Of a DNA stretch of 64,000 bases, positions 29,406-63,455 are shown one piece after another. Under the pieces are notes generated by a model that saw nothing but the letters and a program-made list of their open reading frames with translations, was not told the origin of the DNA and did no database searches. A program made the translations under genes and the position numbers. The DNA lies in the IMG/VR virus record IMGVR_UViG_3300045988_178965, positions 32,001 through 96,000 of that record, one strand, 5' to 3'. The DNA is from a virus. Position 1 is the first letter of the stretch. Every line of letters begins with the position of its first letter.

Positions 29406-29465
29406 ATTAATTATTCCTTTTGTAATTATTGTAATAGGAACATCTGAAATTGCATTTCGCAATTA

Positions 29466-36919: not shown

Positions 36920-38329
36920 TTATCTTGTAGAGATTGTAACATCTCTAAGTCCATTAAAATCACGAACCACATCAATATCTGCGGTTTTAATATAAAATGG
37001 ACCAAACCGTATAGTTGTTTTATTGATCTTAACACCTGGACTAACCTCTGGTTCGAAATTAGCCATAGTGATAAATACTTTCGTATTATTGTCACCTTCA
37101 GACTTATTATCTCTAATTTTATTTAGGATAGTTCTAAATCTAATAGGAGATGGAATCCCAGTTAAATTGATAGTAATTTCATCAAAAGTGGATGAAGCCT
37201 CTTCATTTGAATTAGAAGTATCTACGGTTAAATCCAAAACAGAATTAATTACGCAATCAATACCAGTTCCCCTATAGCTAGGTTTTGCACTTATAAAACA
37301 TTGCAAATACTTGCCGGCGGCAAATAGCTCTTTATTTGGTTCATAAACATTCGAGAATGCAGTTAAAGCATAATCTCTACCGTATATATCTTTAGCCTCA
37401 ATAAACGCCATAGGCTTACCGGTTTTAGTTGTAATAACTCTAACTTTTGATACCTGACAAACAGTTGCCCCATAATAAACACCAGTTTTAGCAACTTCAT
37501 TTTCAATAAAGGCAGAATCATGATGAGGATCTTTAATATCTCTTGTAATAACATCCATAGGATTGCCAGAAATATACACTCCAATCAGTTCTTTTTCTGC
37601 TTCCAAAATTTCAAGAAGAGTAAATTCCTTGAATAATGGATCGACGAAATACGTATGTTCAATTTTACAGAATTCTTTTATTCTCTCTTCTGCCTCAGGC
37701 GTTAGAGCCTTCGCGGCCCTACATTCTTTTTTAAGAGCGCCCTTAGGGTCAAAGTCAAGAATAAATTTAGAATATGAGCGAATAAGAACGCTTCGTTTAT
37801 ATCCAAAAGAATCAACGGCGCCGGAAAGAATTAAACTATCACAAACCTTCTTATTGATATTAGTAGTCAAAAGGTAAGTTCTAAGAAGAAAATCTCCAAA
37901 ACTACTATAAGGTCTAAGTTCAATTAATTTACTAACAGCACCATCACCAATACCACGAATACCAGATAAACCATAAATGATATCATTATTACGGTTAAGG
38001 CCAAATGTACCAACAGATTCATTCAGGTCCGGCGGCAAGATATTGATACCCTTAGATACAGCATCCTCCATATAAGTTTTCTTCATTGGAGGATCAGTTT
38101 CACAAGTAATAATAGAACAATAAAACTCTTCCGGATAATTGGCTTTAAGCCATGCAGTATAATAAGTCAAATGACCATAGGAGTAGGCATGACTCGCATT
38201 GAATGCATACCTCGCAAATTCTAGAAGCTCTTCCCAGAACTGCGCTACTTCTTGTTTATCTTCACCATTGGCCACTGCACCATTGATAAAGTCTTCTCTG
38301 AGCGATGCTAGTTTGGCTGCATCTTTTTT
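36920..38329 (-). CDS. dnaE: DNA polymerase III alpha-type (DnaE) C-part, exon 5
   Basis: Begins KKDAAKLASLREDFINGAV and contains ARYAFNASHAYSYGHLTYYTAWLKANYPEEF, which matches the DnaE finger motif GFNKSHAAAY..AYLKAHYPAEF. An OB-fold-sized tail follows. Confidence 0.85.
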   Translation of the reverse strand, partial: KKDAAKLASLREDFINGAVANGEDKQEVAQFWEELLEFARYAFNASHAYSYGHLTYYTAWLKANYPEEFYCSIITCETDPPMKKTYMEDAVSKGINILPPDLNESVGTFGLNRNNDIIYGLSGIRGIGDGAVSKLIELRPYSSFGDFLLRTYLLTTNINKKVCDSLILSGAVDSFGYKRSVLIRSYSKFILDFDPKGALKKECRAAKALTPEAEERIKEFCKIEHTYFVDPLFKEFTLLEILEAEKELIGVYISGNPMDVITRDIKDPHHDSAFIENEVAKTGVYYGATVCQVSKVRVITTKTGKPMAFIEAKDIYGRDYALTAFSNVYEPNKELFAAGKYLQCFISAKPSYRGTGIDCVINSVLDLTVDTSNSNEEASSTFDEITINLTGIPSPIRFRTILNKIRDNKSEGDNNTKVFITMANFEPEVSPGVKINKTTIRFGPFYIKTADIDVVRDFNGLRDVTISTR

Positions 38330-39345
38330 CAATTATGTTAACCTATCGGTTTTTTATCCGATAGTTCTTATGCTTCATATTTGCATAAGTTCGGCGTACA
38401 TTTTCATCCCATTAGGATGTCGAACACTCTTGGAGATATTATATCTTTTCAATCTCTACGCTCTACGGTGGTTTACAGTTCCTGCAAACTTACCTCGGTA
38501 TTAGCATCTCAGCCTTCACCGATTTTGCTCGATACACATTGTCTTATTACTAAAACAAGGGGCAGATTCAAATTTTATCTTTTTTCTTTTTAAATACACA
38601 TTAGCATTAGAATACATATAGTCGTATAGCATTTTAGAGGGAAGTATCCCACCAAAATGAATGGAACAGAAATTTCCTCTATCGATAATTTTATACTCTC
38701 TTAGAGTTGCACCATTATTAAACAATATAGAATTCAAAACTGGTATAAAATTTTTTGAACCGGTAAAGCTTATTTTGGTCGTATTACCAGATAGGTAAAC
38801 AGAACCATCACCGTCAAAATAGCCTCTTATAAAATGAGGCAAAAGATTGGGATTGATTTCTGGAAATTCATAATCCAAACTTTTATTTCTTTTTATACCT
38901 TTAGATTCCAAAATATTTATAAAAACTTCATCAGAAAATGAAATTTTTGAAGTAGGATTTCTTCCTTCGCGGTGATACGTTTTAACCAAATTATAATCAC
39001 CAGAAATAAGAAAAGATAAGCGATTTAAAATATCTATATCGGATGAAAGAAGCTCTATCGAGAAAGTTCTCTTACCATTACTAAGATATGATATACTACC
39101 GTCTGCACCTATTAATCCTAAGAAGTAGGCTTTCTCTTCAGTATCTATATTATTGAAGAAATCGGAATTTATATTAAATCTACACCTACTTCGGCTGACC
39201 TTTATCCCATTTGATTTTAAAAATCTTGTAATTTTGTAAGGGCTTTCGCCGGTAATAGATGATATCTGCGCTATACTATTATGGTTATTATAAAGGGTAA
39301 TAAAATCTTGCATTGTGTTAATAAAAAAATAAAAGATAAAAATCT
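38330..39345 (-). mobile_element. group I intron D in dnaE (1016 nt) with LAGLIDADG ORF
   Basis: Splicing GCT GTA GGT|AAA AAA GAT restores ADVLRKAVG|KKD (DnaE LRRAMGKK). U is at -1 and the intron ends ..AACATAATTG. It shares the core GGGATGAAAATGTACGCCGAA plus a hairpin. Confidence 0.75.
38516..39313 (-). CDS. intron-encoded LAGLIDADG homing endonuclease
   Basis: 265 aa with two dodecapeptide motifs (YFLGLIGADGSIS and FIRGYFDGDGSVY) and an N-terminal HTH-like segment. Confidence 0.85.
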   Translation of the reverse strand: MQDFITLYNNHNSIAQISSITGESPYKITRFLKSNGIKVSRSRCRFNINSDFFNNIDTEEKAYFLGLIGADGSISYLSNGKRTFSIELLSSDIDILNRLSFLISGDYNLVKTYHREGRNPTSKISFSDEVFINILESKGIKRNKSLDYEFPEINPNLLPHFIRGYFDGDGSVYLSGNTTKISFTGSKNFIPVLNSILFNNGATLREYKIIDRGNFCSIHFGGILPSKMLYDYMYSNANVYLKRKKIKFESAPCFSNKTMCIEQNR

Positions 39346-39416
39346 ACCTACAGCCTTTCTCAAGACATCAGCTTTAATGTCAGAGAAGCCACACATCTCT
39401 TTTGACAATCGGAGGA
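39346..39416 (-). CDS. dnaE: dnaE C-part, exon 4 (71 nt)
   Basis: Encodes (F)LRLSKEMCGFSDIKADVLRKAVG, which aligns with DnaE ..[22 protein letters not shown]. Confidence 0.7.
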
Positions 39417-40493
39417 CAATTTGTTATCCCAAAGGCTTTTTATCCTTTGGCTCTATATCTACTTTTGCTCTCGATATAGTTCGGCATACATTTTCACCAT
39501 ATTGAAAATCAACTTAGGTGCCGGCCACTCGTGGAATCATTATATTCTCCATTGGAGTTTCAGATTCTATGCTCTACGATGCTCCGCATCATTTAAACGC
39601 GGAGTTATCTCGGTATTAGGATAAAAGCAAAATCCCTTCACCGATATTGGCCAGTCATAATAAAAAGTGTTTCCACTTTAAACGTCCCTCTTTTATATAG
39701 GGCCGTGGACATTGAAAAGCCTAATCCACTTTCTATATAAAAAGATATTGGCATCTTTGTAAAGATAATTATAAAACAATTTGGAGCTTCTTAATTTAGA
39801 GTATCTCAAATCACGTACAACAGAAGTATTTTTAAACTCATAAATACTGTAATCGTCAATCATCGCGTATTTGGCTATATCTTCAAGGATCTTTATTCCG
39901 CCTACGATGCTTATTCTTCCTTCTTTGGATGCACATCCGTCGCCATCAAAATAACCTCTAATAAAATGACGAACAAGCTCATCTGGAATAGTATTCGGAA
40001 TAATTTCATTTCCAGATTTATGCTCCAAAAACCCATGATTAACTAAATCGTAAAACATCTTTTTGCAACTTAAAGACACAGAGTAGCCAATATGGTTATT
40101 CTTTATAACTTTAGTAATAGAATTACTGCTTCCAATAGCTAATAAGAATGCTTTTATCGCATCTGCATCTTTTTCTTGAAGCACTAATTTTATATGATAG
40201 TTTACATGAGAAGAGCTTATGCACCCATCGGCCATAAGAAAGCCGAGGAAATATGCTTTTTCTTCTGTATCTATGGTTTCAAAGTAATCCTTATTTGCTA
40301 TCGAGCTAGGTTTGCCTGACCCTCTGCTTAACCCTCTTTTTCTTAGATGGTAATTTATTGTTCCAGGTTTAATACTATATTTCTTGCCAAGCTCAACGGC
40401 AGTGAGGCCGCCAAGATATTCTTCAATTATTTTATTTATAAGCTCATCGCTATATTTCTGTTGTAATTTGTTACCTTTGACAAAGGCCATTCG
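39417..40493 (-). mobile_element. group I intron C in dnaE (1077 nt) with LAGLIDADG ORF
   Basis: This is the only placement that gives U at -1 (..GAAGGTT|), a terminal G (..GATAACAAATTG|, matching the AACAWWAYTG 3' ends of the sister introns) and E. coli-like spacing between YQE and G(F/Y)(S/T). It shares the core ATATGGTGAAAATGTATGCCGAA plus a hairpin. Confidence 0.65.
39693..40490 (-). CDS. intron-encoded LAGLIDADG homing endonuclease
   Basis: 265 aa with motifs YFLGFLMADGCIS and FIRGYFDGDGCAS. It is a paralog of the 38516-39313 ORF. Confidence 0.85.
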   Translation of the reverse strand: MAFVKGNKLQQKYSDELINKIIEEYLGGLTAVELGKKYSIKPGTINYHLRKRGLSRGSGKPSSIANKDYFETIDTEEKAYFLGFLMADGCISSSHVNYHIKLVLQEKDADAIKAFLLAIGSSNSITKVIKNNHIGYSVSLSCKKMFYDLVNHGFLEHKSGNEIIPNTIPDELVRHFIRGYFDGDGCASKEGRISIVGGIKILEDIAKYAMIDDYSIYEFKNTSVVRDLRYSKLRSSKLFYNYLYKDANIFLYRKWIRLFNVHGPI

Positions 40494-40632
40494 AACCTTC
40501 CTGAAAAATCAATTCGTTATGTGCATTACTAAATATATGGTCATACTTAGGAAATCTGAATTTCGTTGGAGGAAGCTCTCCTGAAATCTTTCCTATGATT
40601 CGTTGTACTAATCCGGGAATGTTAAGCGGTCC
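40494..40632 (-). CDS. dnaE: dnaE C-part, exon 3 (139 nt)
   Basis: Not in the ORF track. Translation of the - strand gives GPLNIPGLVQRIIGKISGELPPTKFRFPKYDHIFSNAHNELIFQEG, which aligns with DnaE GPM..IP.FI.RKHG......HP.LE.IL..TYG..VYQEQ. Confidence 0.7.
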
Positions 40633-40884
40633 CAGAAATACAATACAACGGTATCTGATATTTCTATCAGGATCGGACTATCTCATCACCATATCAAATG
40701 ACTTAGGTGTCGGGCGCTGTATCTGGTTATTAAGAGTACTCTAGCTCTCCAGTAGTCTCTGCACCTTCTTATGGTGTACCATAAGCTTGGCTCAGGATTG
40801 CCTTATCTTAAATTAAGACTTAGGTTTCCCTGAATTCACCCAATTTTAACCTAACTGTTTCCAATTAGGGCCCCAGACCGCTTT
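40633..40884 (-). mobile_element. ORF-less group I intron B in dnaE (252 nt)
   Basis: Separates STYRP|GPLNIP (DnaE ALYRPGP). U is at -1 (CCT) and the terminal base is G. The core CACCTAAGTC..ATATGGTGATGAGATAGTCCGATC plus the hairpin ctgata-GAAA-tatcag are nearly identical to intron A. Confidence 0.75.
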
Positions 40885-42072
40885 AGGGCGATACGTACTA
40901 ACAATTACTGCAATATCATGAATAGTTTTAGGCTTACAGGCATTAACGAATCCAGACATACCAGCCTCTTCAAATTGAAAGATACCATAGTTTCTCTCAT
41001 TCCAAAGAACCTTATACGCCGCCTCATTATCCATTGGTAAATTATACCAATCGATATCAATGCCATGACGCTTCTTAATAAGCTCTCTAGCAAAGTTAAG
41101 AACTGTAAGCGTCTTAAGTCCTAAAACATCTAGCTTAACAACATTTGACGTATCTTCAATTTTATTACCTTCCCATTGAATAACGGGGGCGCCTTTACTA
41201 TCCCACAATGGAACATCTTCCCATAGTGGGCGATCAGATAATGCAACTCCACAGTTATGAACGACTACACCATTAGCAATGTAAGAAGAATCATCTAGTA
41301 CAGTGAAGTTATATACATCAATATCGCCATCAAGGTTAGCATCCGTCCATTTGGAAACGTCATTAACTCTGCGAGCATACAATACATCGTCATTGTCGTT
41401 AACTCCAATCATGCCATTCCCGATATTAACATTACCTGCATCCACCCAAACGATATTGCCGTTAAAGCTTCCTTCGGATTTAAATTCTTCTGAATTTATA
41501 AGTGCAATAGGATGGTTCGAAGTACATTCAATATAGCCGAAGTTATCATATTGAGAACATTGATACGAGATATGTAGAATATCTTTTCTCTTAGCTTTAT
41601 TAACTTGGACTTCAACTATTGGTTTCCATCTCAACTTATGGGTTAATGCGAGGTAACCAGGCTTAACATCTTCAATGTTAATTAGCTCTGACTGAGAGTT
41701 TTCATCTTTTTTGATGTAAACTTTTGTGCCAGCTAACAGGCATGCATGAATGCCCTGGGCGCTCAAACAATCGCTAAGCTTAATTGCATCATTCCAAACC
41801 TCTTTCACCTCAGCGTCAGAATTATACAGGGCTTTGATTTCATCACTCTCTTCAAGTAATACATCGAGTGGAGGGCACCCGATATCAGGCATTAAGCTAG
41901 ATATCTTATTAGCCTTATCAAAACCCATACCATGAATACGTGCAGCGTCTTTAAAGGCCTTCTTGCCGCCGGTATATGTCAGGGTGCCTAAATGGGCAAA
42001 CCCTTCGCCATACTTCTCTCTCAACATTTCGAACACTTCAGGACGACGTTCTTTCTCTACATCGGAATCAAT
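40885..42072 (-). CDS. dnaE: dnaE C-part, exon 2 (contains an intein)
   Basis: Begins IDSDVEKERRPEVFEMLREKYG, which is the second half of the catalytic PDIDxDF motif. It contains QGIHA-[intein]-CGVAL (DnaE HAAGVVI), VKLDVLGLKTLT and GIFQFEE (DnaE GVFQLES). Confidence 0.85.
41254..41742 (-). mobile_element. mini-intein (163 aa) in DnaE C-part
   Basis: Starts CLLAGTKVYI, has block B CTSNHPI (TxxH) and ends GVVVHN followed by Cys. Excision restores GIHA|CGVAL. Confidence 0.85.
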
Positions 42073-42325
42073 CGTTTATGTTCAGTATAGGTCGTTAATC
42101 TATACCCGGTACGAAACCAGCTCTATGTCGCCATAGAGACCAGACTATCTCATCACCATGTCCATAAGGATTTAGGTGCTCTGCGCTTCGAACCACTTGG
42201 CCCTACATAATAGTCGTTACACGTCTTTCGCTTTCGCAAATTTTCGCACGGTATTGTCTTCTAGAGAGTTCCACCGTTTTCACAGAGTTTTCTATTGTCA
42301 ATTTCTTGACAAAGGGACTAATTTA
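42073..42325 (-). mobile_element. ORF-less group I intron A in dnaE (253 nt)
   Basis: Separates GGFPD|IDSDV, inside the catalytic Asp motif. U is at -1 (GAT) and the intron ends ..AACATAAACG. It has the core CACCTAAATC..ACATGGTGATGAGATAGTCTGGTC plus the hairpin ctctatg-GCGA-catagag. Confidence 0.75.
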
Positions 42326-42586
42326 ATCCGGGAAACCGCCGCCGACAGTATGCACTTTACCGTCTGGCGGGGTTGCTACGATTCCGAGCAAATAGGCAAT
42401 AGAGGAGTTAGCTTCATTCTCTTCAATATTTTTTACACCAGCATTATACAGATTCAAATAATAGGAATCTATATGATGCAATTCGCAGTGGTTCAATTCG
42501 AACATAATATTTGCTTTATGCTCTTTGAACCAATCCGTATTAGAATGAGAAAGAACTAACTCTCTTAGCGTTTTATGTTCAGCCAT
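42326..42586 (-). CDS. dnaE: dnaE C-part, exon 1 (own start codon)
   Basis: The ATG at 42586 is preceded by AAGGAG and overlaps the upstream stop (AATGGCTGA). It ends ..NSSIAYLLGIVATPPDGKVHTVGGGFPD, the first half of the PDIDxDF motif. Confidence 0.75.
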
Positions 42587-43121
42587 TTTCTTTCTCCTTA
42601 TTACTACTGGTATTTATCAGAGAGCGCTGAGTGTGCTTTAAGTTTCTCTTTAAATCTGATTGCTCTTTTCCTAGTTCAATTAACGCAGCCGAAAGGCGCT
42701 GCTTTTCCTCTCTCAATTTGATAATCTTTAATTTCGAATAAGGATATACAGCGCTTTGGGTATATAAATCTACATCAAATGAGGCTACGACATTTTGCAG
42801 ATAAGACTTTAGAGAAGAAAGTTTTTCACTTAATTCCCTAATAAGGCTTTTATTAAAATAGATTTTTTGTTGAATTTCGCTAATATCCTTTTTAGCACCA
42901 CGAAGTTCTAAAGAGTCAGAATACCTAAGCTTCTTGTCGTTAATGACATCTTTACAATGTCTGAGTCTCTTTTCTATATTAGCCAAATCTTCTGGATATA
43001 AAAAATATTTTATGCCTTCTAGTCTAATTATAGCCCTTTCAAGTCTTCTGATTCTATTGCGTGTTCTTCGTGTTGGCCTCGAAGGATCCATCAGATATTT
43101 ATTTTTTCCGACTTCATACAT
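42579..43121 (-). CDS. hypothetical coiled-coil protein with Arg-rich N-terminus
   Basis: 180 aa with PSRPTRRTRNRIRRLERAI followed by heptad-like helices. It is translationally coupled to dnaE exon 1. Confidence 0.5.
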   Translation of the reverse strand: MYEVGKNKYLMDPSRPTRRTRNRIRRLERAIIRLEGIKYFLYPEDLANIEKRLRHCKDVINDKKLRYSDSLELRGAKKDISEIQQKIYFNKSLIRELSEKLSSLKSYLQNVVASFDVDLYTQSAVYPYSKLKIIKLREEKQRLSAALIELGKEQSDLKRNLKHTQRSLINTSSNKEKENG

Positions 43122-44181
43122 TTTCTTTACCCATGTAGTAGGCTAAAGGCTGAACAATGTAGGCAATTCTATCTTCAATGTTTGATTCTTTCGGCAACAA
43201 GTCTATAATCAACGCCCGCATTTTCCCTTTAATTTCAGCGGAATGCGGTTTTGTACAGTCGAAAGCTACAGGTTCCGAGGATACCAAAGGAATAACCTTT
43301 TCCCCAAATTTGACATAACTACCGTCTTCAACTGGGCCAATAGGTACGAATAATCTAATTCGTCTTGTATCAAAATTGATAGTATCGGTATGTTCAGAGA
43401 CGCTACAATCTTCAAATTCTTCTACTTCGACACCTGCCACAATATAGTCATTTGATTTATTATATTTCTCAATTTCCAATTCAAGACCAACAGTTGTCAA
43501 ATGGGATAATGGTGATCTGTGTGCCTTAGGATTAACAAGTCCCGCGGCGTATAGGAAGTTAGTATTCCAAACTCCAGAAAGTTTATCCATACTATTTGGA
43601 TACATGCCAATTGATTCAATAATAGAATCAAGAAGTGTATGATTTTTAAACAATTTAAAATCAGGAATTCGGATGTGTCCAGAATCACAGCTATCTGCAT
43701 AAATAAAGCTACCTTCTATAACTTCTGTATAGCTCATAGTTTGATTTGTAAAACATGAGTTATAACATCTGTCAGGCGGACAAGTCACAATGAATGCATA
43801 AATGCCGGCACCACCAATATGTTCAAATTCAGTATCTTTATTAATTTCAAAACAAAGCTCTGTGGCTTTTGATTCATAATGTTTGCCATTATATTTTAAA
43901 GAAGACTGAAATAAAGGAATTAGAAAGCTTAAAGTACCGGGAGGCTCATATCCATATGGATGACCTTTAAGTTCGCCGGATTTGCCAGGAATCCAAATAC
44001 CACATAGTGAATTTAACCCTTCTTCGCAAACTTCATAACCTTCAGCTAACTCTTGGGCAATTTTCATTCCAAAGTCGCCAGGCTTTTCGTTTACATTTCC
44101 GAAAAACCCATATCTTCCCAGGTCAGAATATTTAATGTCTGCATAGACACTTCTAAGCATATATATTGGTGAGTCGTTCAT
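43114..44181 (-). CDS. hypothetical protein (two-domain, Cys/His-rich; oxygenase/cupin fold not excluded)
   Basis: 355-aa ORF in the cassette. It has no unambiguous motif, only scattered H/D/C residues (SGHIRIPD, TKPHSAE). Confidence 0.4.
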   Translation of the reverse strand: MNDSPIYMLRSVYADIKYSDLGRYGFFGNVNEKPGDFGMKIAQELAEGYEVCEEGLNSLCGIWIPGKSGELKGHPYGYEPPGTLSFLIPLFQSSLKYNGKHYESKATELCFEINKDTEFEHIGGAGIYAFIVTCPPDRCYNSCFTNQTMSYTEVIEGSFIYADSCDSGHIRIPDFKLFKNHTLLDSIIESIGMYPNSMDKLSGVWNTNFLYAAGLVNPKAHRSPLSHLTTVGLELEIEKYNKSNDYIVAGVEVEEFEDCSVSEHTDTINFDTRRIRLFVPIGPVEDGSYVKFGEKVIPLVSSEPVAFDCTKPHSAEIKGKMRALIIDLLPKESNIEDRIAYIVQPLAYYMGKENV

Positions 44182-44193
44182 TTTCTAATTCCT

Positions 44194-44868
44194 TTATTCG
44201 GTTAAACCTGCTTTTGCTAAACCATAGAATACACCGGTATCACCATTCCAGCTTTGGAATTTCTCGGCGATAACGTGTAGTTCGGTAATATCCATTGTTA
44301 GTAATGGGAACTCTTCAAAGAAGCTCTTAGTTGAAAGGCCACCGTAGCCAATCATAATACCACCAGGGCGAAGCAATTTTTCATAAACCTGAGTAGAATA
44401 AATATTAGTAGGATCAAGAGCAAGATCATCTATTAGATCACAAACAATCAAATCATAAGTATCAGATTGCTCATTATGCTCAGAAAGAAAAGTTTGAATA
44501 TCTTTTTCTACAATATTTAAAAAGGCTTTTCCAGTCATCGCGGCATATTGCTTCTTGTACTGATTAGCAGCAGATGTACTATGAGGTTTAAATTTAGTAA
44601 AGTAATCTGTAATGCCCGGATCTACAATAGTAATACGGTTATCATAAGATAAAAATGTACATTCACTAATTAATTGAAAATCGCCGCCGCCAATAACAAG
44701 GATATTATTCCATTCCTCTGGAGCCTTATTATCAGGAAACATTCTTTGATAAACCTTATGGAACATTCGTGGATATTTAAAATAATCACGACCAGTTGCC
44801 CACTGAATTAAGCCATCAATATAATAACCAAATGACCCGCCGGGCCCTTTTTTAAATTCAAGCTCCAT
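44194..44868 (-). CDS. spermidine synthase-fold (PABS-like) SAM/dcSAM-dependent transferase
   Basis: 224 aa. Matches are YIDGLIQ (LDGxxQ), NILVIGGGDFQLISE (vLiIGGGDGgxxRE), YDLIVCDLIDD (DvIivDssDP) and LLRPGGIMI. Confidence 0.55.
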   Translation of the reverse strand: MELEFKKGPGGSFGYYIDGLIQWATGRDYFKYPRMFHKVYQRMFPDNKAPEEWNNILVIGGGDFQLISECTFLSYDNRITIVDPGITDYFTKFKPHSTSAANQYKKQYAAMTGKAFLNIVEKDIQTFLSEHNEQSDTYDLIVCDLIDDLALDPTNIYSTQVYEKLLRPGGIMIGYGGLSTKSFFEEFPLLTMDITELHVIAEKFQSWNGDTGVFYGLAKAGLTE

Positions 44869-45451
44869 ATCTTTTCACCTCATCAAAAACAAAACAGTTA
44901 TCCTTATCTATATCTGTAATGTTGTATTTTTTAATAATATCTTCCCTGCTTGGAAAGTTTCTTGTTTCACCATAAAGAATTCGATACTCTTCAGCAATCA
45001 TACTCTCTTTTAAGCAAGGAACAACGGATTGGGCAGTAGATACGATAAGTGGAGTCCATGTATTTACTTCACACGCATCAAATTCATCCTGGATCAAGCA
45101 AGCTCTAATGCAAATAGCTTTAATAGCTTTAAGGATAGACATTTTGCATGAGCGAGGATGCAAGAATACTGTTCCGCCAATAATAGAATTCGTTTGGTCC
45201 AAATCTTGACAGAAGAATCCAACATCTTTCTGGCCATTATTTACAATATACAAATCTTGCGGAGCTTTAGGATAAATATATCGTTTAAACCAATCGAAGT
45301 TATAGCACTTGTGCAATTCTTCGTCAGGGATACCAAAACTTTTCAACCAATCTTTAAATGTTCCACTATAATCATTAATAACCCAATCTTTATTGGAACA
45401 TTCTACAAGCCATTCAAAATCAGCTTCTGTCGCTTTTCGTACTAAAACCAT
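44858..45451 (-). CDS. GNAT-like acetyltransferase (tentative)
   Basis: 197 aa. It starts MVLVRKATEADFEWL, which is typical of GNATs. The central VGFF..GGTVFLHPRSCKMSILKAIKA resembles the beta4-alphaA3 region. This is a by-eye call only. Confidence 0.4.
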   Translation of the reverse strand: MVLVRKATEADFEWLVECSNKDWVINDYSGTFKDWLKSFGIPDEELHKCYNFDWFKRYIYPKAPQDLYIVNNGQKDVGFFCQDLDQTNSIIGGTVFLHPRSCKMSILKAIKAICIRACLIQDEFDACEVNTWTPLIVSTAQSVVPCLKESMIAEEYRILYGETRNFPSREDIIKKYNITDIDKDNCFVFDEVKRYGA

Positions 45452-46572
45452 CAGTCTCTCTCAACTTCTTCCTGCTCAATAGCTATCTTCAATAGCTCAT
45501 CAACTTTAGGATAAAAATAATCAATTATCTCAGGTAAATTTTCATCCTGAGAATTTACAGCAAAAATTGTAGAGTACATAGGTTTTACTACAAAATCTTG
45601 CCACGAATTAGATAGCCAATATAGGTCATTTTCAACACCCATTTGTCTATATTGTATATTTTTAACTGGACAATGCGTCAAATCTTTTTCGTTATCTTCA
45701 ACCACAGGGAAAGACTCATTGTCAGATTTTAGGTTATTTTTATTAAAGAATTGAATAACCTTCGGAGAATAGAACATCTCTTCTTCATTTGCTGCATGAT
45801 CACGACACATATAAATATTGCCGCGAGGAGAGATTGCCCTTACATTCTTAGAGCATAAGTCTTTATCACTTTTATGATACCAAGATGCGGACAACAATTC
45901 TTTTGCAACGAATAGGGATTTCTCTTCTCCTGAAATGCAAATGTCCCTAGAAATCTCCATAATGCCTTTAAACAAAGCACCAAAGAAATCTCTAGGGATA
46001 ATAACAGCTTTATCAGTTCTGTACACAGTCACAGGCTCATAACTAAATGTATCAACACCAAGCGCCGAAAAGAATTTGTAATTATCAAACATATTATCAA
46101 ATTTAGTTCGACCATATAAAACAGAACTTAAAGTAATATCAAGATCATCCGATTTGCGCATTGTTCTGATATTGTTTAAAACAGCATCAAATTGATCTTG
46201 ACTTTCGAATCGTTGCTTATTTTCTTCAAATGTAGAACCATCAAGAGAAATAAGAACCTCATCTAAAATATAAGACAGAGAAAGAACCTCTTCCTCTGTC
46301 CAGTTAGTAAATAGTCCATTAGTATATAATCTCGTAGAGATATTCATATTAAGAGAGCTGCAAAAATTAATAATATCAAACAACTCTTTTTTATGGATAG
46401 TAGGCTCACCGCCATAAAACTCGACAATAGAGCCTACCTTGGCATACTTCCTAATGAAATCTTTTATTTGTTCCAAATCGGCCAATACAGGAGATTCATT
46501 CTTAGACTGTATGCAGCAATAAGAACAATCTAAATCACAATGATTACTGAACACAATACTAAGAATATACAT
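45451..46572 (-). CDS. radical SAM enzyme (maturase-like, possible twitch/SPASM-type C-terminal region)
   Basis: 373 aa with a CxxxCxxC motif at residues 12-19 (NHCDLDCSYCC) and GGEPT downstream. Additional Cys residues sit in the C-terminal third (LCSKN, YMCRDH, THCPV). Confidence 0.8.
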   Translation of the reverse strand: MYILSIVFSNHCDLDCSYCCIQSKNESPVLADLEQIKDFIRKYAKVGSIVEFYGGEPTIHKKELFDIINFCSSLNMNISTRLYTNGLFTNWTEEEVLSLSYILDEVLISLDGSTFEENKQRFESQDQFDAVLNNIRTMRKSDDLDITLSSVLYGRTKFDNMFDNYKFFSALGVDTFSYEPVTVYRTDKAVIIPRDFFGALFKGIMEISRDICISGEEKSLFVAKELLSASWYHKSDKDLCSKNVRAISPRGNIYMCRDHAANEEEMFYSPKVIQFFNKNNLKSDNESFPVVEDNEKDLTHCPVKNIQYRQMGVENDLYWLSNSWQDFVVKPMYSTIFAVNSQDENLPEIIDYFYPKVDELLKIAIEQEEVERD

Positions 46573-46574
46573 CT

Positions 46575-47174
46575 TTATTCCTTCACTGGGTTGTCTCTAA
46601 AATAAGATTGAACTTGCAACGGGATAACTTTACGAGCTGAATCATCTTCATCAAAGAATCCCATAATGTAATCATTATAGCCAAATTTTGTCTTATATGA
46701 TTTAATTTTTTCATAAAGATCTTTGAGGTACATCCATAGCCAATCGGTTTCATAATCAAACGCAAATTGATACTTTAGATATTTGAAATCTGATTCTTGA
46801 ATTCCGTCAAGTGCTCTGTAGCATTGATACAGGTGATCAACGAATTCGCGCAATCCTCTAATATCAAGTCCTGCTAAATCTTTGTCATCTCTTGGTAATG
46901 CATATTTTTCACAATAAAACTGTGAAAATTTCAATAGCGGATATTGCTCAGAGTTTACTTCGGTTGATGCAAGCTCTTCATCAATAGTATTCTTAAGAAC
47001 ATTATAAGCGTAAAGAGAATATTCATCATCCTCAATGTTAGAGGCAAAATAAAAAATTTTCTCTGCTCTTTCTAATGACCCTTTTTCTGAGGCATTAAGA
47101 ACTTCGAGTGCCTTTTCATAATTACCTTCAGCGACGGTCATAGTGTTATTGAGTTCAAAAAAGCTAATAGGCAT
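46575..47174 (-). CDS. hypothetical helical protein (cassette member)
   Basis: 199-aa ORF whose start overlaps the stop of the small peptide gene by 1 nt. Confidence 0.5.
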   Translation of the reverse strand: MPISFFELNNTMTVAEGNYEKALEVLNASEKGSLERAEKIFYFASNIEDDEYSLYAYNVLKNTIDEELASTEVNSEQYPLLKFSQFYCEKYALPRDDKDLAGLDIRGLREFVDHLYQCYRALDGIQESDFKYLKYQFAFDYETDWLWMYLKDLYEKIKSYKTKFGYNDYIMGFFDEDDSARKVIPLQVQSYFRDNPVKE

Positions 47175-47386
47175 TAGCAGCCACCTCCAACAGTATCCTG
47201 GTGTGAATGCGTATGAATCATCAACGCCTCTATGACACGACGAATATCATTAATATCTCTGACACTGATATCGTCATCGGTAGTCACCCGTCTAGAAACA
47301 CCATTTCCAAACGGTAAGGCTTCTTGCCCTGAGCCATTGGTCCACTGAGGAACTGAAAAACCAGTAGGAGAACTTGTTTCTGGCAT
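47174..47386 (-). CDS. 70-aa peptide ending HTHSHQDTVGGGC (candidate precursor/scaffold peptide)
   Basis: First ORF after a terminator-like hairpin. It is coupled to four downstream enzyme genes. The N-terminal half is low-complexity and the tail is His-rich with a single terminal Cys. Confidence 0.5.
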   Translation of the reverse strand: MPETSSPTGFSVPQWTNGSGQEALPFGNGVSRRVTTDDDISVRDINDIRRVIEALMIHTHSHQDTVGGGC

Positions 47387-47400
47387 AAAAATCCTTTCTT

Positions 47401-47429
47401 GTAAAATACGCCAGCTTTATTACTGGCGT
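47401..47429 (-). terminator. probable intrinsic terminator
   Basis: - strand stem acgccag / ctggcgt (47408-47429, 8-nt loop) followed by ATTTTAC, between ORF 47452-47937 and the peptide gene. Confidence 0.45.
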
Positions 47430-47451
47430 AAGTATATTTTACAATAAGATT

Positions 47452-47937
47452 CTATTCTTTACTACCTTCAATTCGGATATATGCAGCATTTGATACTAAC
47501 ATAAAATTCAAAATTGCAGCCAATTCTAATAAAGAATCGGATTGATGTACGTGCCAAAGTATTCCTTCATCTAAACGATTGTCTAAGATCAGAGAATCTA
47601 AGCGCTTTTCGCCATCTTCCATTTCAAGAATTCGAGCCAATAATCCATAGATATTAGTGGTTTCATCTAAATTCATTGAGCCCTTTTTACGGGATCCGAA
47701 ATAAACACTAGGATTAACGGCTTCTGGCAAACAGCTTAATAGCAAATCGTCTTCGTCACAACAGATATTAAATGTATCCATAAATGACATCCAGTTGTGA
47801 TCAAATCCTGATTTTACAACTTCTTTTACAAATTCATATTTTCCCGAAACGGACAAATTTGTATAAGTTGAATAACAGGCAAATGTTGCATTGTTTAATT
47901 TTGGCAATAGTTCATTTTGAAGATATTGTAAAGACAT
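47452..47937 (-). CDS. hypothetical protein
   Basis: 161-aa ORF immediately downstream of the dnaE N-part. Confidence 0.5.
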   Translation of the reverse strand: MSLQYLQNELLPKLNNATFACYSTYTNLSVSGKYEFVKEVVKSGFDHNWMSFMDTFNICCDEDDLLLSCLPEAVNPSVYFGSRKKGSMNLDETTNIYGLLARILEMEDGEKRLDSLILDNRLDEGILWHVHQSDSLLELAAILNFMLVSNAAYIRIEGSKE

Positions 47938-47956
47938 TTTTTATTTTTCTTTCTGT

Positions 47957-57022: not shown

Positions 57023-57925
57023 TTAATTACACACTGTTTTTAAAACTGTTTCTACAGTTGTAGTGGGCAAACATGTAAAATTAATTCTTGCAGAAATTAC
57101 ATCTGGACGACTCATAAGTGCACATAACCAATTATGACCGACCAGTGCCGCTGTATCATTCGCAACCAGGAATTGTTCTTCCAGCTCGACATCTGTATCT
57201 GCTTCCGCGCAAGAATAGATTTTTACTTCTTCGTCTTCAGTTAATGTTTCTGGAGACATGGTAAAAAATCTTAATTTTGCGTAGTCGCTTGGTGTGGCAC
57301 CATACGGAGTGGCAAACAATTGACCGTGGGCCAATTCATTTCCAATATCTACAATCCAGCCGGTAAGTGACAGAGAGTGAACTGCACGTCTGGCGTTTTG
57401 ATTGTCAACGAGATTGAAGACCACTACAAATTCAGAATAGCAGACCATATCACCCAAAGTATTAATATGGCTAAAATGATTTGCATCATAATTACTTTTT
57501 TCTGTCAGATACTTGTCAATGTATTGAACACTAACATCCTTAAGTGTTGCACCATAACGAACAGCCATAACTTCGGCTTTATTTCTACCAATATCTGACT
57601 CGACAAAGTTCTGCCGAATCAGGTTTTTAGATTCGACCGTGTCACCATCCACAAGTACCAATGAAAAATCATTAGCAAGCAAGTTTTTACGCTTCATGTC
57701 GTTAATCGTTTTTGCAAGTTTTGGAATCAGCCAAGAGCCAGTTCCGCCGCAACCAACTACTACAATTTTACCTAAAGGAACATGACGCTTATTTGATTCT
57801 TGGCCAGAAAGTTTTTTCATCAAAGCTTCTACTTCATACTCTTCGACCGCTTTTTGATGATTATTGACTTCTTCTTCTGTTGAAAAGAATTCAATATTTT
57901 TTCTACCAATTGTAACTTTTTTCAT
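57023..57925 (-). CDS. ThiF/MoeB/E1-like adenylyltransferase
   Basis: The start is trimmed to MKKVTIG (ATG at 57925, preceded by AAAGGA). It has a Rossmann motif (VVVGCGGTGSWLIPKL) and the E1 signature LVLVDGDTVESKNLIRQNF (DxDxVexSNLxRQ). Confidence 0.8.
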   Translation of the reverse strand: MKKVTIGRKNIEFFSTEEEVNNHQKAVEEYEVEALMKKLSGQESNKRHVPLGKIVVVGCGGTGSWLIPKLAKTINDMKRKNLLANDFSLVLVDGDTVESKNLIRQNFVESDIGRNKAEVMAVRYGATLKDVSVQYIDKYLTEKSNYDANHFSHINTLGDMVCYSEFVVVFNLVDNQNARRAVHSLSLTGWIVDIGNELAHGQLFATPYGATPSDYAKLRFFTMSPETLTEDEEVKIYSCAEADTDVELEEQFLVANDTAALVGHNWLCALMSRPDVISARINFTCLPTTTVETVLKTVCN

Positions 57926-57936
57926 AAATATTTCCT

Positions 57937-59331
57937 TTAAAATTTTTCCAAATAAGCACTGATGCGTTCGGGCAGACATAAACATTTCACACCAGAAGCA
58001 TCCAGTTCTTCAGACAAACGATTGCTGGTCACAAAAAGCGAATCTTCTACAGCAAAAACAGAAGAAGCAATTGCAACGCATAGAGCTTTTGAAGGATCGG
58101 TGATTTTTTCAACAGTACTTCTAGGACCGGAATGAACGTCCGAAATTGAATCAACCAGGCTCGACATAAAAGTTTGAAGGCCAACTGAGAATACATGGTA
58201 TGGGTGATCATCTGGCAACTCTATCGCATTGATAAAATCAGAGGCAGCTGCTTCAATTTCTTTAAACTCTTCATCGCTATACAGAAGAGTATCGTTAGGT
58301 TTATAAAAGCTACGAAGAATCGAAGAGATCCATTTATACTTCGTCTTATCTTCATCCGCTTCATAACCAAGAATCCATTCATCCTGTATATCATTACCAG
58401 TTACAATTTTAGCATTTGTATCACGAGTAGCACTATTCCAATGAGTATCGTAACCGTCGTAAGGATAATCCCCAATGTCTCCGTAGTAATCATAGTTATA
58501 GGGGTACGCCCCGTAGTCTCGAGTTTGGACTTTGGAGACGTTTGATGGGGCTGATTGGTAGCCTGTATAGGGATACCCTTTCGATTTGGATTTACCATAA
58601 TTAGCATAAGCTCCATAGTTATAAACTTTCTCTTTGACTTTTAAATAATCTTCTTCCGGAACATCAAAACCGAATTGATTTTCTTCAGAAAAATCAAAGA
58701 TATCCTGCAATTGTAATGGAATTAGTGCATCAGCACAACATGCTCGTTGAACAGTTTTATATGTAAAGGTATTATCAGGTTTATTTACCAAATTGCCAAA
58801 TACAAATGAATAAATACCATGTTTACCTTTTTCATCTGAGTTGTCTGTGGCTGAATAGAATGCACCCATTGTATGATGTGAGTGAGATGTCAATACCAAC
58901 ACTTTATTAGGGTCATCATACCAACCGCCAGTTCTTTGATAAGTAATAGACGCACCAGCAACTTCTTGTTCTGGAACTTCAACAAGAAATTCTTGGGCCT
59001 CTTTATCCCACCAAATTTGCGCCATCACTTCATTCTTATTGGTTTCATAAATCTTACGATAGAAACGAATAATTCCATAAAATAATTTGCCGGGAATTTT
59101 TGGAATGTCTGTAGACTGAATAAAGCTTTCAGACATTTTTGGCATGCCGATCATCTTAGTTTTAAAGCTTTCTGCTTTAATCCAGAAATCGCCAATAACA
59201 GAACGGACAAGTTTATAAATACCGTCTTCCGCGACTATGGAATCTCCATCCTCGGCATCTTCTTTATTTTGTACAATTTGAGGTAAGCGAAAATCCATTT
59301 CGCCCATCAAGTCTTCAATGCTCAAACTCAT
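57937..59331 (-). CDS. JAB/MPN+ (JAMM) metallopeptidase with long C-terminal extension
   Basis: 464 aa with a complete JAMM motif: E101 (NEVMAQIWW) then H150-S-H152-x7-S160-x2-D163 (LTSHSHHTMGAFYSATD). A Tyr/Gly/Asp-rich low-complexity linker and a C-terminal region of about 160 aa follow. Confidence 0.8.
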   Translation of the reverse strand: MSLSIEDLMGEMDFRLPQIVQNKEDAEDGDSIVAEDGIYKLVRSVIGDFWIKAESFKTKMIGMPKMSESFIQSTDIPKIPGKLFYGIIRFYRKIYETNKNEVMAQIWWDKEAQEFLVEVPEQEVAGASITYQRTGGWYDDPNKVLVLTSHSHHTMGAFYSATDNSDEKGKHGIYSFVFGNLVNKPDNTFTYKTVQRACCADALIPLQLQDIFDFSEENQFGFDVPEEDYLKVKEKVYNYGAYANYGKSKSKGYPYTGYQSAPSNVSKVQTRDYGAYPYNYDYYGDIGDYPYDGYDTHWNSATRDTNAKIVTGNDIQDEWILGYEADEDKTKYKWISSILRSFYKPNDTLLYSDEEFKEIEAAASDFINAIELPDDHPYHVFSVGLQTFMSSLVDSISDVHSGPRSTVEKITDPSKALCVAIASSVFAVEDSLFVTSNRLSEELDASGVKCLCLPERISAYLEKF

Positions 59332-59358: not shown

Positions 59359-60075
59359 TTACATCATAATGCCGCTGAGAATTGCATCATAATCATGCAT
59401 CAGTTCGCGCTCTAAGTTATAGTCTTCGTTTCCTACAGCCTTCATTGCAAAGAATTTGCAAGTAAGATTTCGAAAACGGCCGTTAACTTTAGAACTGATT
59501 TCTTCAGCAGTGGAATTTCTGAATGAATATGTATTGTCCAAATCTGTATTAAATGTTGAACCAAAGAACAATTGTGGCAATTGCTCAATATCAAACAAGT
59601 TTCCACTCTTCAAAATAGAATTAACGGTTCTTTCATTTTCGCCCCAGCAAATTCCATAAGAAGCACTATAATTATTCATTCTGAGATACCATAGTTTTGT
59701 ATCCGGTTTGATTTCATCGCCATTGCAAATAAAGATAGAGCTTTTTTCACGGATAAAATTGCCTCTAGAATTAACTACGGCTTTCATTACAATGCCGGGC
59801 AGTTTTACTACCACATCCGGAAGGCCATTATATTTAATTGTAAACATTCTAGAAGGCTGGTAAATCAAAAAGCCCTTGTACTCAGAATTTTCCCAAATTC
59901 TTAAAATATTTTGCGGAATCAGACCTGAATCTTTATTCTCGCCATTTGGGCCGGCCAAAGCAGCAGCAGCAGCTTTTGTAGTAACCATTTTTGAGGTACA
60001 TTTACCTTGCAGGTCTTGGATATGAATAACAGCTTTATCCTTATTTAAAACCTCAATATTAATTTTTCCTTGCAT
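59359..60075 (-). CDS. candidate prokaryotic E2-like protein (tentative)
   Basis: 238 aa, 27 nt upstream of the JAB gene. A beta-rich core is followed by NNYSASYGICWGEN, which resembles the N-x(n)-G-x-(I/V)-C-x-G active-site loop I recall for bacterial E2-like proteins of PRTRC-type cassettes. Confidence 0.35.
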   Translation of the reverse strand: MQGKINIEVLNKDKAVIHIQDLQGKCTSKMVTTKAAAAALAGPNGENKDSGLIPQNILRIWENSEYKGFLIYQPSRMFTIKYNGLPDVVVKLPGIVMKAVVNSRGNFIREKSSIFICNGDEIKPDTKLWYLRMNNYSASYGICWGENERTVNSILKSGNLFDIEQLPQLFFGSTFNTDLDNTYSFRNSTAEEISSKVNGRFRNLTCKFFAMKAVGNEDYNLERELMHDYDAILSGIMM

Positions 60076-62981: not shown

Positions 62982-63455
62982 TTACCAATTTAGGATTTTA
63001 CGAATAGCATAAGATACCAAATTTAAAATCACTTCGGCCTCTTGGCCACTTACAGGAATTGAAAATTGGGATTTTACACCGCCATTGTTTTGAGCCACCG
63101 AAATGAAGTAAGGCGATTTACCTTCAGTTGCTCTAGTAAGTTTAATAACTTTTGTAGAGCCATCAAATTCATGAAACATTTCGGCCTCTTGTCCGCGCTT
63201 CATGGAATAAACAATCTGAGACAAGTCAGGCATTCCAAGTTTTACGCCGATTTTCTTATTTTCCCATTCGTATTGTTTTTGATTTCCAGAACCTTCTTTA
63301 ACTGGAGCAATTTCCAAATAAATAAATCCTTTATTCAGAATATCTTTTCCTGAAGAGTTATTAATACGAGGGTTAACCAAGCGCATACGAAGCGCCGCCT
63401 TGGATTTGTAAATAGCATATTCCAAGGGTTGTTCTGCTACATTATAATTAGACAT
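62982..63455 (-). CDS. Whirly-like single-stranded DNA-binding protein
   Basis: 157 aa, collinear with plant Whirly/p24 proteins. Matches are YKSKAALRMRLV (YKGKAAL), GFIYLEIAP..QKQYEWENKKIGVKL (QYDWxxKQxFxL), EMFHEF (CEFFHDP), KVIKLTRA..SPYFISV and FSIPVSGQEAEVILNLVSYAIRKILNW (IPITRAEFAVL...LPYLIGW). Confidence 0.7.
   Translation of the reverse strand: MSNYNVAEQPLEYAIYKSKAALRMRLVNPRINNSSGKDILNKGFIYLEIAPVKEGSGNQKQYEWENKKIGVKLGMPDLSQIVYSMKRGQEAEMFHEFDGSTKVIKLTRATEGKSPYFISVAQNNGGVKSQFSIPVSGQEAEVILNLVSYAIRKILNW

Follow-up and report, generated by a model that had tools for sequence, protein, structure and literature searches.

The occurrence, between the two cistrons of a split dnaE gene in a viral genome, of a tightly packed set of genes for a 70-residue peptide, a radical S-adenosylmethionine (rSAM) enzyme and several candidate tailoring enzymes raises the question as to what such a cassette makes and why it is found there. 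The locus lies in a 64,000-nucleotide stretch of DNA (IMG/VR record IMGVR_UViG_3300045988_178965, positions 32,001 to 96,000), which is referred to here as the window and whose numbering is used for all of its features. Six genes form the conserved core, encoding the peptide, a partner protein, the rSAM enzyme, a GNAT-fold protein, an aminopropyltransferase-like protein of the PABS fold and a probable bicupin. We give about an even chance to the reading in which these six constitute a phage-specific pathway that tailors a small protein, akin to the pathways for peptides made on the ribosome and modified after translation (RiPPs) or for protein-derived cofactors. An earlier note on this DNA, made from the letters alone, had recognised the succession of peptide, helper, rSAM and tailoring genes as the grammar of such systems, and this grammar is real, with the outside relatives of the rSAM enzyme, the conservation of the peptide and the co-localisation of the genes all favouring it. 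The operon grammar is that of a known kind of system; what is new is the enzyme set, the family to which the substrate belongs, the partner, the confinement to phages and the constant slot in a split polymerase gene.

The interval between dnaE-N and dnaE-C contains seven ORFs, all on the minus strand (42579-47386), and not the eight genes originally counted. Their tight coupling was otherwise described correctly, with junctions that overlap by 1, 1, 11, 8 and 8 nt or are separated by 2 and 12 nt, and the motifs CDLDCSYC, IGGGD and DLIVCDLIDD are all present. Reading along the minus strand, the ORFs encode the 70-aa peptide, a precursor or small protein belonging to no Pfam, NCBIfam or PDB family (47174-47386); the 199-aa partner, whose place in the order between the peptide and rSAM genes is conserved (46575-47174); the 373-aa rSAM enzyme with the motif CDLDCSYC (45451-46572; Pfam Radical_SAM, 4e-15); a 197-aa protein whose GNAT fold was recognised from an AlphaFold2 model and PDB fold matches (44858-45451); the 224-aa PABS-like protein with IGGGD and DLIVCDLIDD (44194-44868; Pfam Spermine_synth, 5.6e-8); a 355-aa probable bicupin, assigned by fold matches and an HxD…H triad (43114-44181); and a 180-aa coiled-coil protein (42579-43121). 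The last of these has a stop codon that overlaps the dnaE-C start, the ATG of exon one (42323-42586), as the earlier note had it, but the gene does not belong to the conserved unit. Comparison with relatives (loci with L numbers below) found it in the window, L001 and L003 only and missing from the other relatives examined, with an identity of 52-63% where neighbouring genes reach ~90-99%. Between dnaE-N and the hairpin that precedes the peptide gene, a 161-aa ORF on the same strand (47452-47937), for which library scans gave no family match, is subclade-specific, being kept at 58-94% in L001-L009 and absent from L010 and L011, and some relatives have an additional 164-aa ORF. Because the 161-aa and 180-aa ORFs are variable we take the conserved unit to be the six core genes. 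In GC content (0.33-0.37) the cassette is no different from the flanking sequence, and library scans found no integrase, transposase or endonuclease within it. The exact sequences of the six cassette proteins that were looked up exist under DAD57… accessions, with generic annotations that read hypothetical, 'putative Fe-S oxidoreductase' or 'Spermidine synthase'.

From its N-terminus the peptide comprises a WxNGS segment, an RRV motif, a helix of the form DINxxR…E, an HxH-x-(Y/H)-x-D segment and a Gly(n)-Cys C-terminus. Nine divergent peptides share invariant M1, P7, W15, G18, R33, V34, D44-I45-N46, R49 and E53, followed by H58, H60, D64, G67 and the C-terminal Cys, which is single and follows the Asp by 5-10 residues. 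The tails themselves differ between lineages (GGGC, GGGGC, GGGGGC, GGGGGGC, GGC, GSC, GKC, NNSC and GGGGTTTCG), and in L123/L171 the peptide ends in Cys-Gly; Gly tails of variable length ending in Cys look like a flexible linker with a terminal Cys. The peptide ORF is conserved in relatives and is under strong purifying selection, with a ratio of non-synonymous to synonymous substitution rates (dN/dS) of ~0.04 among pairs whose synonymous sites are unsaturated, and more distant pairs retain 80-86% protein identity despite saturated synonymous sites. The exact peptide sequence is present on 169 metagenome contigs, and sequence searches of Pfam, PHROGs, NCBIfam, PADLOC and PDB gave no match to it.

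Several relatives carry altered forms of the peptide gene. That of L020 is split by a group I intron between the helix and the HxH motif (2059-2400; Rfam 74 bits), and the downstream exon 2 still encodes HAHDYSDATGGGC and then a stop, which speaks for a frame that is both expressed and required. The L020 peptide gene is followed by a 642-aa DUF723 ORF. In L013 (9186-9408) and L014 (546-768) the peptide is divided between two ORFs that overlap, one of 33 aa with the WTNGS part and one of 46 aa with the DINQLR…HSH…GGGGGGC part; seen in two assemblies, the division may be genuine or may mark a site of frameshifting. The most informative variant is found on the 7.5-kb contig L153, where a single gene (1158-1943) occupies the dnaE gap and encodes a 261-aa protein made of three tandem whole peptide modules, each with WxNGS, RRV, DINELR and HxH. 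Such a triplication suggests that the module is a folded domain and a probable trimer with its six His brought together, and by this analogy the peptide module probably works as a homotrimer in which three HxH motifs form a metal site. The L153 protein has no Gly-Cys tail, and its gap has no rSAM, GNAT, PABS or cupin genes, which suggests that the Cys tail and the rSAM enzyme are gained or lost together. Of the computational evidence, this co-occurrence of tail and rSAM gene speaks most strongly for the tail as the target of the enzyme.

Other identities considered for the peptide were rejected. As a ubiquitin-like substrate of the JAB, E1 and E2 proteins encoded nearby it fails in that the GSC, GKC and NNSC tails have no Gly-Gly and the invariant residue is Cys. 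A reading of the Gly-rich tail as a glycyl-radical 'spare part' finds no RVxG-type motif and only weak scores from activase models, and a peptide hidden Markov model (HMM) gives no match to the N-terminal extension of dnaE-C, with which kinship had been considered. The CxPxR motif, corresponding to the C/S-x-P/A-x-R target of anSME, is absent from the peptide.

The same gene order in the same dnaE gap was found in more than 40 related phage loci from three collections. Close relatives in IMG/VR number 11 (contigs of 80-186 kb, most of them 170-186 kb; rSAM identity 52-95%), and in all 11 the cassette order between dnaE-N and dnaE-C is unchanged. Distant rSAM homologues (31-49% identity) lie in the dnaE gap in six of seven contexts, as far as the contigs reach, with a PHP-domain DnaE fragment on one side and a finger/HHH DnaE fragment on the other, and there the rSAM gene comes after a small ORF ending in Cys and an ORF for the partner, and is followed by a GNAT-like ORF. 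The seventh context (L015/L016) is outside any dnaE gap. The order persists in L012 and L013 (rSAM identity 31-34%) and in the still more divergent L123. Searches started from dnaE-N agreed with this, as did searches of viral and metagenome collections with a degenerate DNA pattern that represents the peptide helix (the peptide alignment is too variable for a protein-based locus search); about one third of the metagenome matches to this pattern were due to chance. Wherever flanks are present on the contig, Cys-ended peptides have dnaE-N before them and the partner and rSAM genes after them, with the exceptions of L136 and L123/L171; in the latter the partner is there by position and is not detected by HMM. 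The minimal set over the lineages with an rSAM gene in the gap is peptide, partner, rSAM and GNAT, as in L012, where a GNAT-like protein is encoded and PABS was not detected. Among bacteria and archaea, represented by one genome per species (185,579), there was no related locus and only generic rSAM cores at 20-32% identity were returned. The 50,697 phage records held no close cultured relative, the only DNA matches being to a group I intron, with no tblastn match for the rSAM enzyme or the peptide, and a literature search found no description of the operon.

The sequence of the rSAM enzyme starts directly with the cluster motif, so that there is no fused recognition domain. The CX3CX2C motif (residues 12-19) is invariant, as are three further Cys in the C-terminal half (C240, C256 and C301), where there is a CX10GX4C-like segment, and the segment AISPRGNIYMCRDHAANEE is invariant or nearly so. 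Three extra Cys are fewer than the 7-Cys SPASM motif requires and are compatible with a twitch or partial SPASM domain; the enzyme therefore probably has an auxiliary Fe-S cluster of the twitch or partial-SPASM type, and not the full SPASM motif. When 1.84 billion representative proteins were searched exhaustively with HMMER, a profile built from 26 rSAM sequences returned ~20 full-length members of the family and then a sharp drop in score. Ten proteins were sampled past this drop; all ten resemble SPASM peptide maturases and none is NrdG- or QueE-like, with PapB as the best model in seven and SCIFF, CbpB, nif11, anSME and HxsB making up those that follow. Since the outside relatives are SPASM-maturase-like, the test favours a peptide or protein substrate, and it sets the enzyme apart from the housekeeping NrdG and QueE families, in keeping with the pathway that the earlier note proposed. 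The weak matches listed among named families include PapB, CefB, anSME, HxsB, StsB, the tungsten-cofactor maturase, viperin and MoaA, with scores of 44.2 bits against PapB NF047865 (cut-off 340; the substrate has no CX3D-type motif), 41.8 bits against anSME TIGR03942 (cut-off 349) and 43.1 bits against viperin NF038283 (cut-off 180). MftC TIGR03962 scored 33.5 bits (cut-off 265) and NrdG2 36.8 bits (cut-off 131), while QueE was not among the 25 matches listed. The best PDB matches were SkfB and YydG; viperins matched at 2e-3 or weaker in PDB and at 5e-13 with the PADLOC pVip model, and weak viperin similarity was all that this defence-system library returned from the cassette. Membership of a His-Xaa-Ser (Hxs) system was rejected, as the similarity of the rSAM enzyme is generic and HxS repeats are absent.

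The 199-aa partner carries an invariant (F)DYETD motif, is always encoded between the peptide and rSAM genes and has homologues detectable by HMM as far as L012 (3.7e-12). No family or PDB sequence match was found for it, PHROGs and PADLOC included. Its position makes it a candidate substrate-presenting chaperone.

That the 197-aa protein is a GNAT had been a guess, which is now borne out at the level of the fold. Its AlphaFold2 model is confident (pLDDT, the predicted local distance difference test score, 87.3; predicted template modelling (TM) score 0.85), and the top 50 PDB structure matches are all GNATs, FdhC and SpeG among them (probability 1.0, TM 0.4-0.6). Viral GNATs also match, and there was no match to a Pfam or NCBIfam acetyltransferase. 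The protein was also considered as a Mom-like DNA modifier and rejected (hhalign probability 0.4%). For the PABS assignment the support comes from the Pfam profile (Spermine_synth PF01564, 33.0 bits, gathering cut-off 22.9) and from active-site residues: the only PDB proteins matched by a profile built from nine divergent homologues are spermidine synthases (best 4.8e-9), and the invariant G60, G61, G62, D63, D83, D144 and D147 of these homologues include residues that align to GGGDG, the motif selecting decarboxylated SAM, and DSSDP of Plasmodium SpdS. The usual N-terminal oligomerisation domain is missing, the alignment beginning at about residue 46 of SpdS, and the scores against SpeE equivalogs are 27 bits for TIGR00417 (cut-off 249.55) and 27.3 for PRK00811 (cut-off 260).

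To call the 355-aa protein Cys/His-rich, as was done at first, understates what it appears to be. Although it has no Pfam match and forms only six sequence clusters among 5.8 billion sequences, all from this phage clade, each of the top 33 Foldseek PDB matches of its low-confidence model has a cupin fold; most of them are bicupins, as is every one of the top 10, with E ~1e-5 but TM-scores of ~0.19. These include salicylate and quercetin dioxygenases, 3-hydroxyanthranilate dioxygenase and oxalate decarboxylase. The C-terminal barrel has an invariant H264-x-D266 … H313 that resembles a 2-His-1-carboxylate metal site, and in L010, L017 and L147 two single-cupin genes with the same triad replace the 355-aa gene. 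We consider the protein a probable bicupin on the strength of these models. Sequence-profile searches of PDB returned nothing for either the GNAT or the cupin. Judged by their conserved residues the tailoring enzymes look catalytically competent, GGGD and DxxD being kept in the PABS-like protein and HxD…H in the cupin, with a GNAT fold predicted for the third.

The gene content, folds, conserved residues, linkage and the pairing of Cys tail with rSAM gene described above are what was observed; from them we infer the substrate relationship, the trimer, every chemical step and the biological role set out below. The substrate would be a small folded protein of 70 residues, a probable homotrimer with an HxH metal site and a Gly(n) linker ending in the invariant Cys. 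The partner would present the tail to the enzymes, and the rSAM enzyme would then act on the terminal Cys, most likely forming a thioether between the Cys sulfur and a carbon of the HxH-(Y/H)-x-D segment, or alternatively oxidising or decarboxylating the Cys. A thioether is the leading candidate because of the nearest rSAM relatives and of the conserved Asp and aromatic residues nearby. Further decoration could consist of an acyl group added by the GNAT-fold protein, an aminopropyl group added from decarboxylated SAM by the aminopropyltransferase-like protein and a hydroxyl group added by the cupin acting as an Fe(II)-type enzyme. As no protease or exporter is encoded, the product is probably intracellular and a secreted RiPP is less likely; it would be retained by the infected cell, whether as a bound cofactor or as a protein with the modification, and by analogy we expect its logic to be closer to that of mycofactocin or protein-derived cofactors than to that of a bacteriocin. 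A more specific version, which we regard as rather unlikely, is that the product is a new cofactor or effector, a trimeric metal-binding mini-protein with cross-linked, aminopropylated, acylated and hydroxylated terminal cysteines that takes part in replication inside the infected cell, perhaps together with the split DnaE, or counters the defences of the host.

A number of observations weigh against a peptide-tailoring pathway. Conservation of the peptide extends over all 70 residues, with no division into leader and core. Scans of Pfam, NCBIfam and other libraries gave no peptidase or transporter family match for any of the seven cassette ORFs, and there is no immunity gene in the cassette, unlike in classical RiPP clusters. 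The partner and its family profile showed no signal of a RiPP recognition element (RRE) or PqqD-like fold in Pfam, NCBIfam and PDB profile searches, although the earlier note had proposed looking for one in this protein. The rSAM enzyme matches named NCBIfam families at 33-44 bits where the cut-offs are 180-650, and viperin and MoaA match it about as strongly as peptide maturases do. In the GNAT-fold protein the cofactor loop reads HPRSCKM instead of Q/RxxGxG/A, with H98, C102, K103 and M104 invariant, and the model of the 355-aa protein is of low confidence (pLDDT 49.9). The co-localisation of the cassette genes, which the earlier note linked to their joint function, stands for the more than 40 loci but not for sample 3300035181, where the peptide and an rSAM homologue are in different neighbourhoods. 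There the L136 peptide (6391-6618, NNSC tail) lies between a macro-domain-like ORF and a PhoH-like gene, and the L015 rSAM homologue (10001-11038), on another contig, lies near RecA, RuvC and nrdB; the L015 gene call is without the first cluster Cys and the gene may be interrupted. Finally, L035 has the same dnaE split with a lone GNAT-like ORF (4763-5329) that overlaps both neighbours and no peptide, rSAM, PABS or cupin gene within 14.8 kb, which suggests that the GNAT may act independently of the peptide.

Two other readings draw on the enzymes rather than on the peptide. The cassette could be a polyamine module, in which the PABS-like protein makes a spermidine-type polyamine and the SpeG-like GNAT acetylates it, tuning pools for replication or packaging, with the remaining genes serving a separate function. 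The spermidine synthase-only matches and conserved active site of the former, and the place of SpeG spermidine acetyltransferases among the best structure matches of the latter, fit this proposal, and both enzyme types have phage precedent in a functional spermidine synthase and spermidine N-acetyltransferases whose families and folds the cassette shares (PMC9992855). The one phage spermidine synthase reported is, however, paired with speD (PMC9992855), whereas no SAM decarboxylase was found in the cassette or in the scanned ORFs of the window. The cassette transferase is truncated and divergent, being without the N-terminal domain and far under the speE equivalog cut-offs, the GNAT is without the acetyl-CoA loop, and polyamine synthesis and inactivation in one operon would be odd. 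Both genes are also locked to the peptide and rSAM genes in every lineage having them, and L012 keeps peptide, partner, rSAM and GNAT-like genes with no PABS detected, so that we hold the polyamine module to be unlikely. Quite unlikely, in our view, is a DNA or nucleotide hypermodification system in which the rSAM, GNAT, aminopropyltransferase and oxygenase proteins build a base adduct and the small protein is an accessory. It would suit a family confined to phages and a cassette within a replication block, near RecA, RuvC, a primase-helicase, ribonucleotide reductase (RNR) and a deoxynucleoside monophosphate (dNMP) kinase, and the weak viperin-like and MoaA-like matches of the rSAM enzyme are compatible with it. 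The phage-only thymidine hypermodification clusters of M6, ViI and PaMx11 likewise combine rSAM isomerases and GNAT acetyltransferases near replication genes (PMC8989533), but they rest on a 5-hydroxymethyldeoxyuridine (5-hmdU) DNA kinase and an amino-acid:DNA transferase and have no peptide gene. No cassette protein matches models of the 5-hmdU DNA kinase or the aGPT-Pplase/amino-acid:DNA transferase, and the GNAT shows no similarity to Mom. The auxiliary-cluster Cys of the rSAM enzyme and its nearest outside relatives, which are peptide maturases, speak against a nucleic acid target, and the co-occurrence of Cys-tailed peptide and rSAM enzyme would be left unexplained.

The position of the cassette suggests two further explanations. 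The small protein, modified or not, might serve as an assembly factor or subunit for the two DnaE fragments, given that the peptide module or the cassette is in the dnaE gap of split lineages, that the module is the sole gap gene in L153 and that the outgroup L036 (31% DnaE identity), whose DnaE is unsplit, has no cassette on its contig. This is made very unlikely by L035, which has the same split and no peptide module, only the GNAT-like gene, by the location of the L136 peptide elsewhere and by the gap of L019, which tolerates 14 unrelated genes, SIR2-like and Tad2-like ones included; no similarity to any known replisome subunit was found either. The L019 insertions (~14 extra ORFs in 1544-7134 and 10920-12961, with weak SIR2 and HAD matches and a Tad2-like (anti-Thoeris) protein) indicate that the dnaE gap behaves as an accessory-gene island that accepts accessory and possibly counter-defence genes. 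In T4-like phages, polymerase genes split by inserted cassettes are known, and this precedent, together with a region crowded with inteins, group I introns and homing endonucleases and a duplication of AYxLGIT at the junction that fits insertion or fission, would accord with a recent selfish or mobile element that split dnaE by chance and brings the phage no benefit. We find this barely credible and, on the conservation data, largely refuted: the arrangement is kept across lineages with ~31% rSAM identity, the peptide is under purifying selection, all of the enzymes have invariant active-site residues, GC is uniform and the cassette has no integrase, transposase or endonuclease. The T4-like splits resemble the present one in having two cistrons around intervening ORFs in a homing-rich region, but here the polymerase is of the DnaE type, the insert is a conserved biosynthetic operon and not a homing cassette, and the split is ancient and clade-wide. 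The mobile-insertion origin proposed in the earlier note can thus be kept only as an ancient event, followed by inheritance at uniform composition.

Returning to a peptide-tailoring pathway, the closest parallels are among rSAM systems with auxiliary clusters. The rSAM/SPASM thioether RiPP and protein-crosslinking systems (the ranthipeptide enzyme PapB, the SCIFF maturases CteB/ScfB, and QhpD of quinohemoprotein amine dehydrogenase) have, like the cassette, a short gene for a Cys-containing substrate near an rSAM gene with Cys for an auxiliary cluster, in the cassette a probable one; PapB/SCIFF-type families are the best named matches of the cassette enzyme and of its outside relatives, and in the substrates of PapB and QhpD a conserved Asp is found near Cys, as in the cassette peptide. 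In contrast with these systems the cassette enzyme is far under the cut-offs and has three extra Cys instead of seven, its substrate has a single terminal Cys after Asp, no CX3D repeats and conservation over the whole length, and the phage-only cassette has no protease or exporter and adds a GNAT, an aminopropyltransferase and a cupin. The order of peptide, small partner, rSAM enzyme and then tailoring enzymes is that of mycofactocin (MftA, MftB, MftC), with which the cassette would also share chemistry on the extreme C-terminal residue and a product used inside the cell. It differs from mycofactocin in that its peptide ends in Gly(n)-Cys and not Val-Tyr, the partner gives no PqqD/RRE signal, an MftE-type peptidase, MftD and MftF are missing, and the substrate is apparently a folded, repeatable domain.

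Microcin C combines a ribosomal peptide, a SAM-derived aminopropyl decoration (MccD/MccE) and a GNAT, and the cassette too pairs a peptide gene with aminopropyltransferase-like and GNAT proteins. The cassette has, however, no adenylating enzyme of the MccB type, the ThiF-like gene of the window being ~10 kb away with E2 and JAB genes; its transferase is of the spermidine synthase family and not of the MccD type, and the peptide ends in Cys, not Asn. As for the proposed metal site, HxH sites are used by trimeric phage spikes and fibres (P2 gpV, phi92 gp138, T4 gp37/gp12). The HxH of the peptide is invariant and the L153 fusion would gather six His as in those trimers, although the peptide has no sequence similarity to them, is encoded in a replication and not a structural module and has 70 residues only, and its trimer and metal are our proposal.

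Pathways in which rSAM enzymes tailor peptides are bacterial and archaeal systems that make antibiotics and cofactors, and to our knowledge such a pathway has not been described in lytic phages. The present one appears confined to a clade of phages of ~170-190 kb and, deep as the divergence among them is, has stayed in a single genomic slot, which points to a function that the phage needs during infection. In metagenomes these phages are common, 169 contigs carrying the exact peptide. Were the product a modified protein or cofactor, it would represent a new class of phage-encoded chemistry, possibly with new enzymology at a C-terminal Cys such as peptide aminopropylation, and in the more specific version given above the pathway would be the first dedicated RiPP-like or cofactor pathway of virulent phages without a bacterial counterpart. 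The shared dnaE split is in itself a clean case of a replicative polymerase gene that tolerates fission and turns into an accessory-gene island.

The dnaE locus (36920-49753, minus strand) is a mosaic, its two cistrons being broken up further by a pair of mini-inteins, by group I introns (at least two) and by two endonuclease genes. The dnaE-N cistron (47957-49753), identified by tblastn matches to phage DnaE, covers the PHP domain and the start of the palm, and its equivalents in relatives carry the Pfam domains PHP and DNA_pol3_alpha. Exon one of dnaE-C (42323-42586), which relatives keep at 63-92%, ends with GGGFPD, shortly ahead of the catalytic DxD, and its N-terminus is also that of the dnaE-C genes in L012 and L035, which are continuous. 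Both fragments hold a copy of the palm segment AYxLGIT (47957-48110 and 42323-42420), dnaE-N ending …SLLSYALGITAIDP…LPVIEIKGY, without the catalytic DxD, and dnaE-C starting …SSIAYLLGIVATPP…GGGFPD. From its sequence this duplication looks like the remnant of an ancient dnaE fission event. A split intein joining the DnaE halves was considered and rejected, since dnaE-N ends …IKGYPLKEWL and the NH-C of dnaE-C (ELNHCELH) is not conserved, the site reading ELNHLELH in L013, L017, L018 and L035.

Just 3' of the cassette, dnaE-C is interrupted by a group I intron (42121-42335, minus strand; Rfam RF00028, 66.4 bits, E = 1.3e-14) with blastn similarity to td-type and phiKZ introns. Also on the minus strand are a second group I intron (40654-40894; 103 bits) and two LAGLIDADG endonuclease genes (39693-40490 and 38516-39313), the latter recognised by comparison with relatives. 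One mini-intein lies in dnaE-N at about residues 400-548 and is absent in L010, and the other lies in the next dnaE-C exon and is absent in L001; every intein, intron and endonuclease element of dnaE is present in some relatives and absent in others. In L002-L004 recA is interrupted as well.

Just upstream of the ribosome-binding site of the peptide gene, folding and alignment identify a composite stem-loop at approximately 47398-47445 on the minus strand. The terminator-like hairpin of the earlier note (47408-47429) is present but is the inner part of this larger element, which has a stem of ~17 bp, a folding energy of -18.5 kcal/mol and z = -5.5. The outer stem GUAAAA/UUUUAC is kept in 7 relatives, with 2 pairs changing on both sides, and the inner stem persists in relatives though its sequence changes. 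Along with the translational coupling of the cassette genes, this conserved structure counts in favour of the proposed pathway. A terminator scan flags the element on the plus strand only, and its U-run, the would-be terminator, pairs with an upstream A-run. With its U-run paired, this stem-loop before a strong Shine-Dalgarno sequence may terminate transcription in both directions, or may serve to process or stabilise RNA. The sequence GTARAATATA (47433-47442), which is conserved 5' of the peptide gene in all aligned relatives including L010, is the 5' arm of the outer stem. It was considered as a repeated phage promoter and rejected, there being one occurrence in the 64-kb window against 0.87 expected by chance.

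Elsewhere in the window, 8-13 kb upstream of the cassette and on the minus strand, genes for a Prok-E2_D protein (59359-60075), a JAB-domain protein (57937-59331) and a ThiF/E1-like protein (57023-57985) look like a phage-encoded ubiquitin-like conjugation module, and a reverse transcriptase gene (55441-56970, minus strand) adjoins them. L012 and L013 also have ThiF-like genes close to their replication module, and in L015 one adjoins the rSAM homologue and is seemingly interrupted by a LAGLIDADG element. The region 27229-29462 and 22819-23385 (minus strand) encodes an RNR small subunit, an HNH endonuclease and a T4 gp1-like dNMP kinase (DNMK). The RNR small-subunit ORF, of 539 aa and adjoining the HNH endonuclease gene, matches its Pfam domain in two separate stretches, which probably marks another intein or intron. 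A Whirly-family protein (62982-63455; 1.9e-15) is possibly a phage single-stranded DNA-binding protein, and a plus-strand block at 1296-5348 encodes a 1350-aa protein with a bactofilin-like segment.

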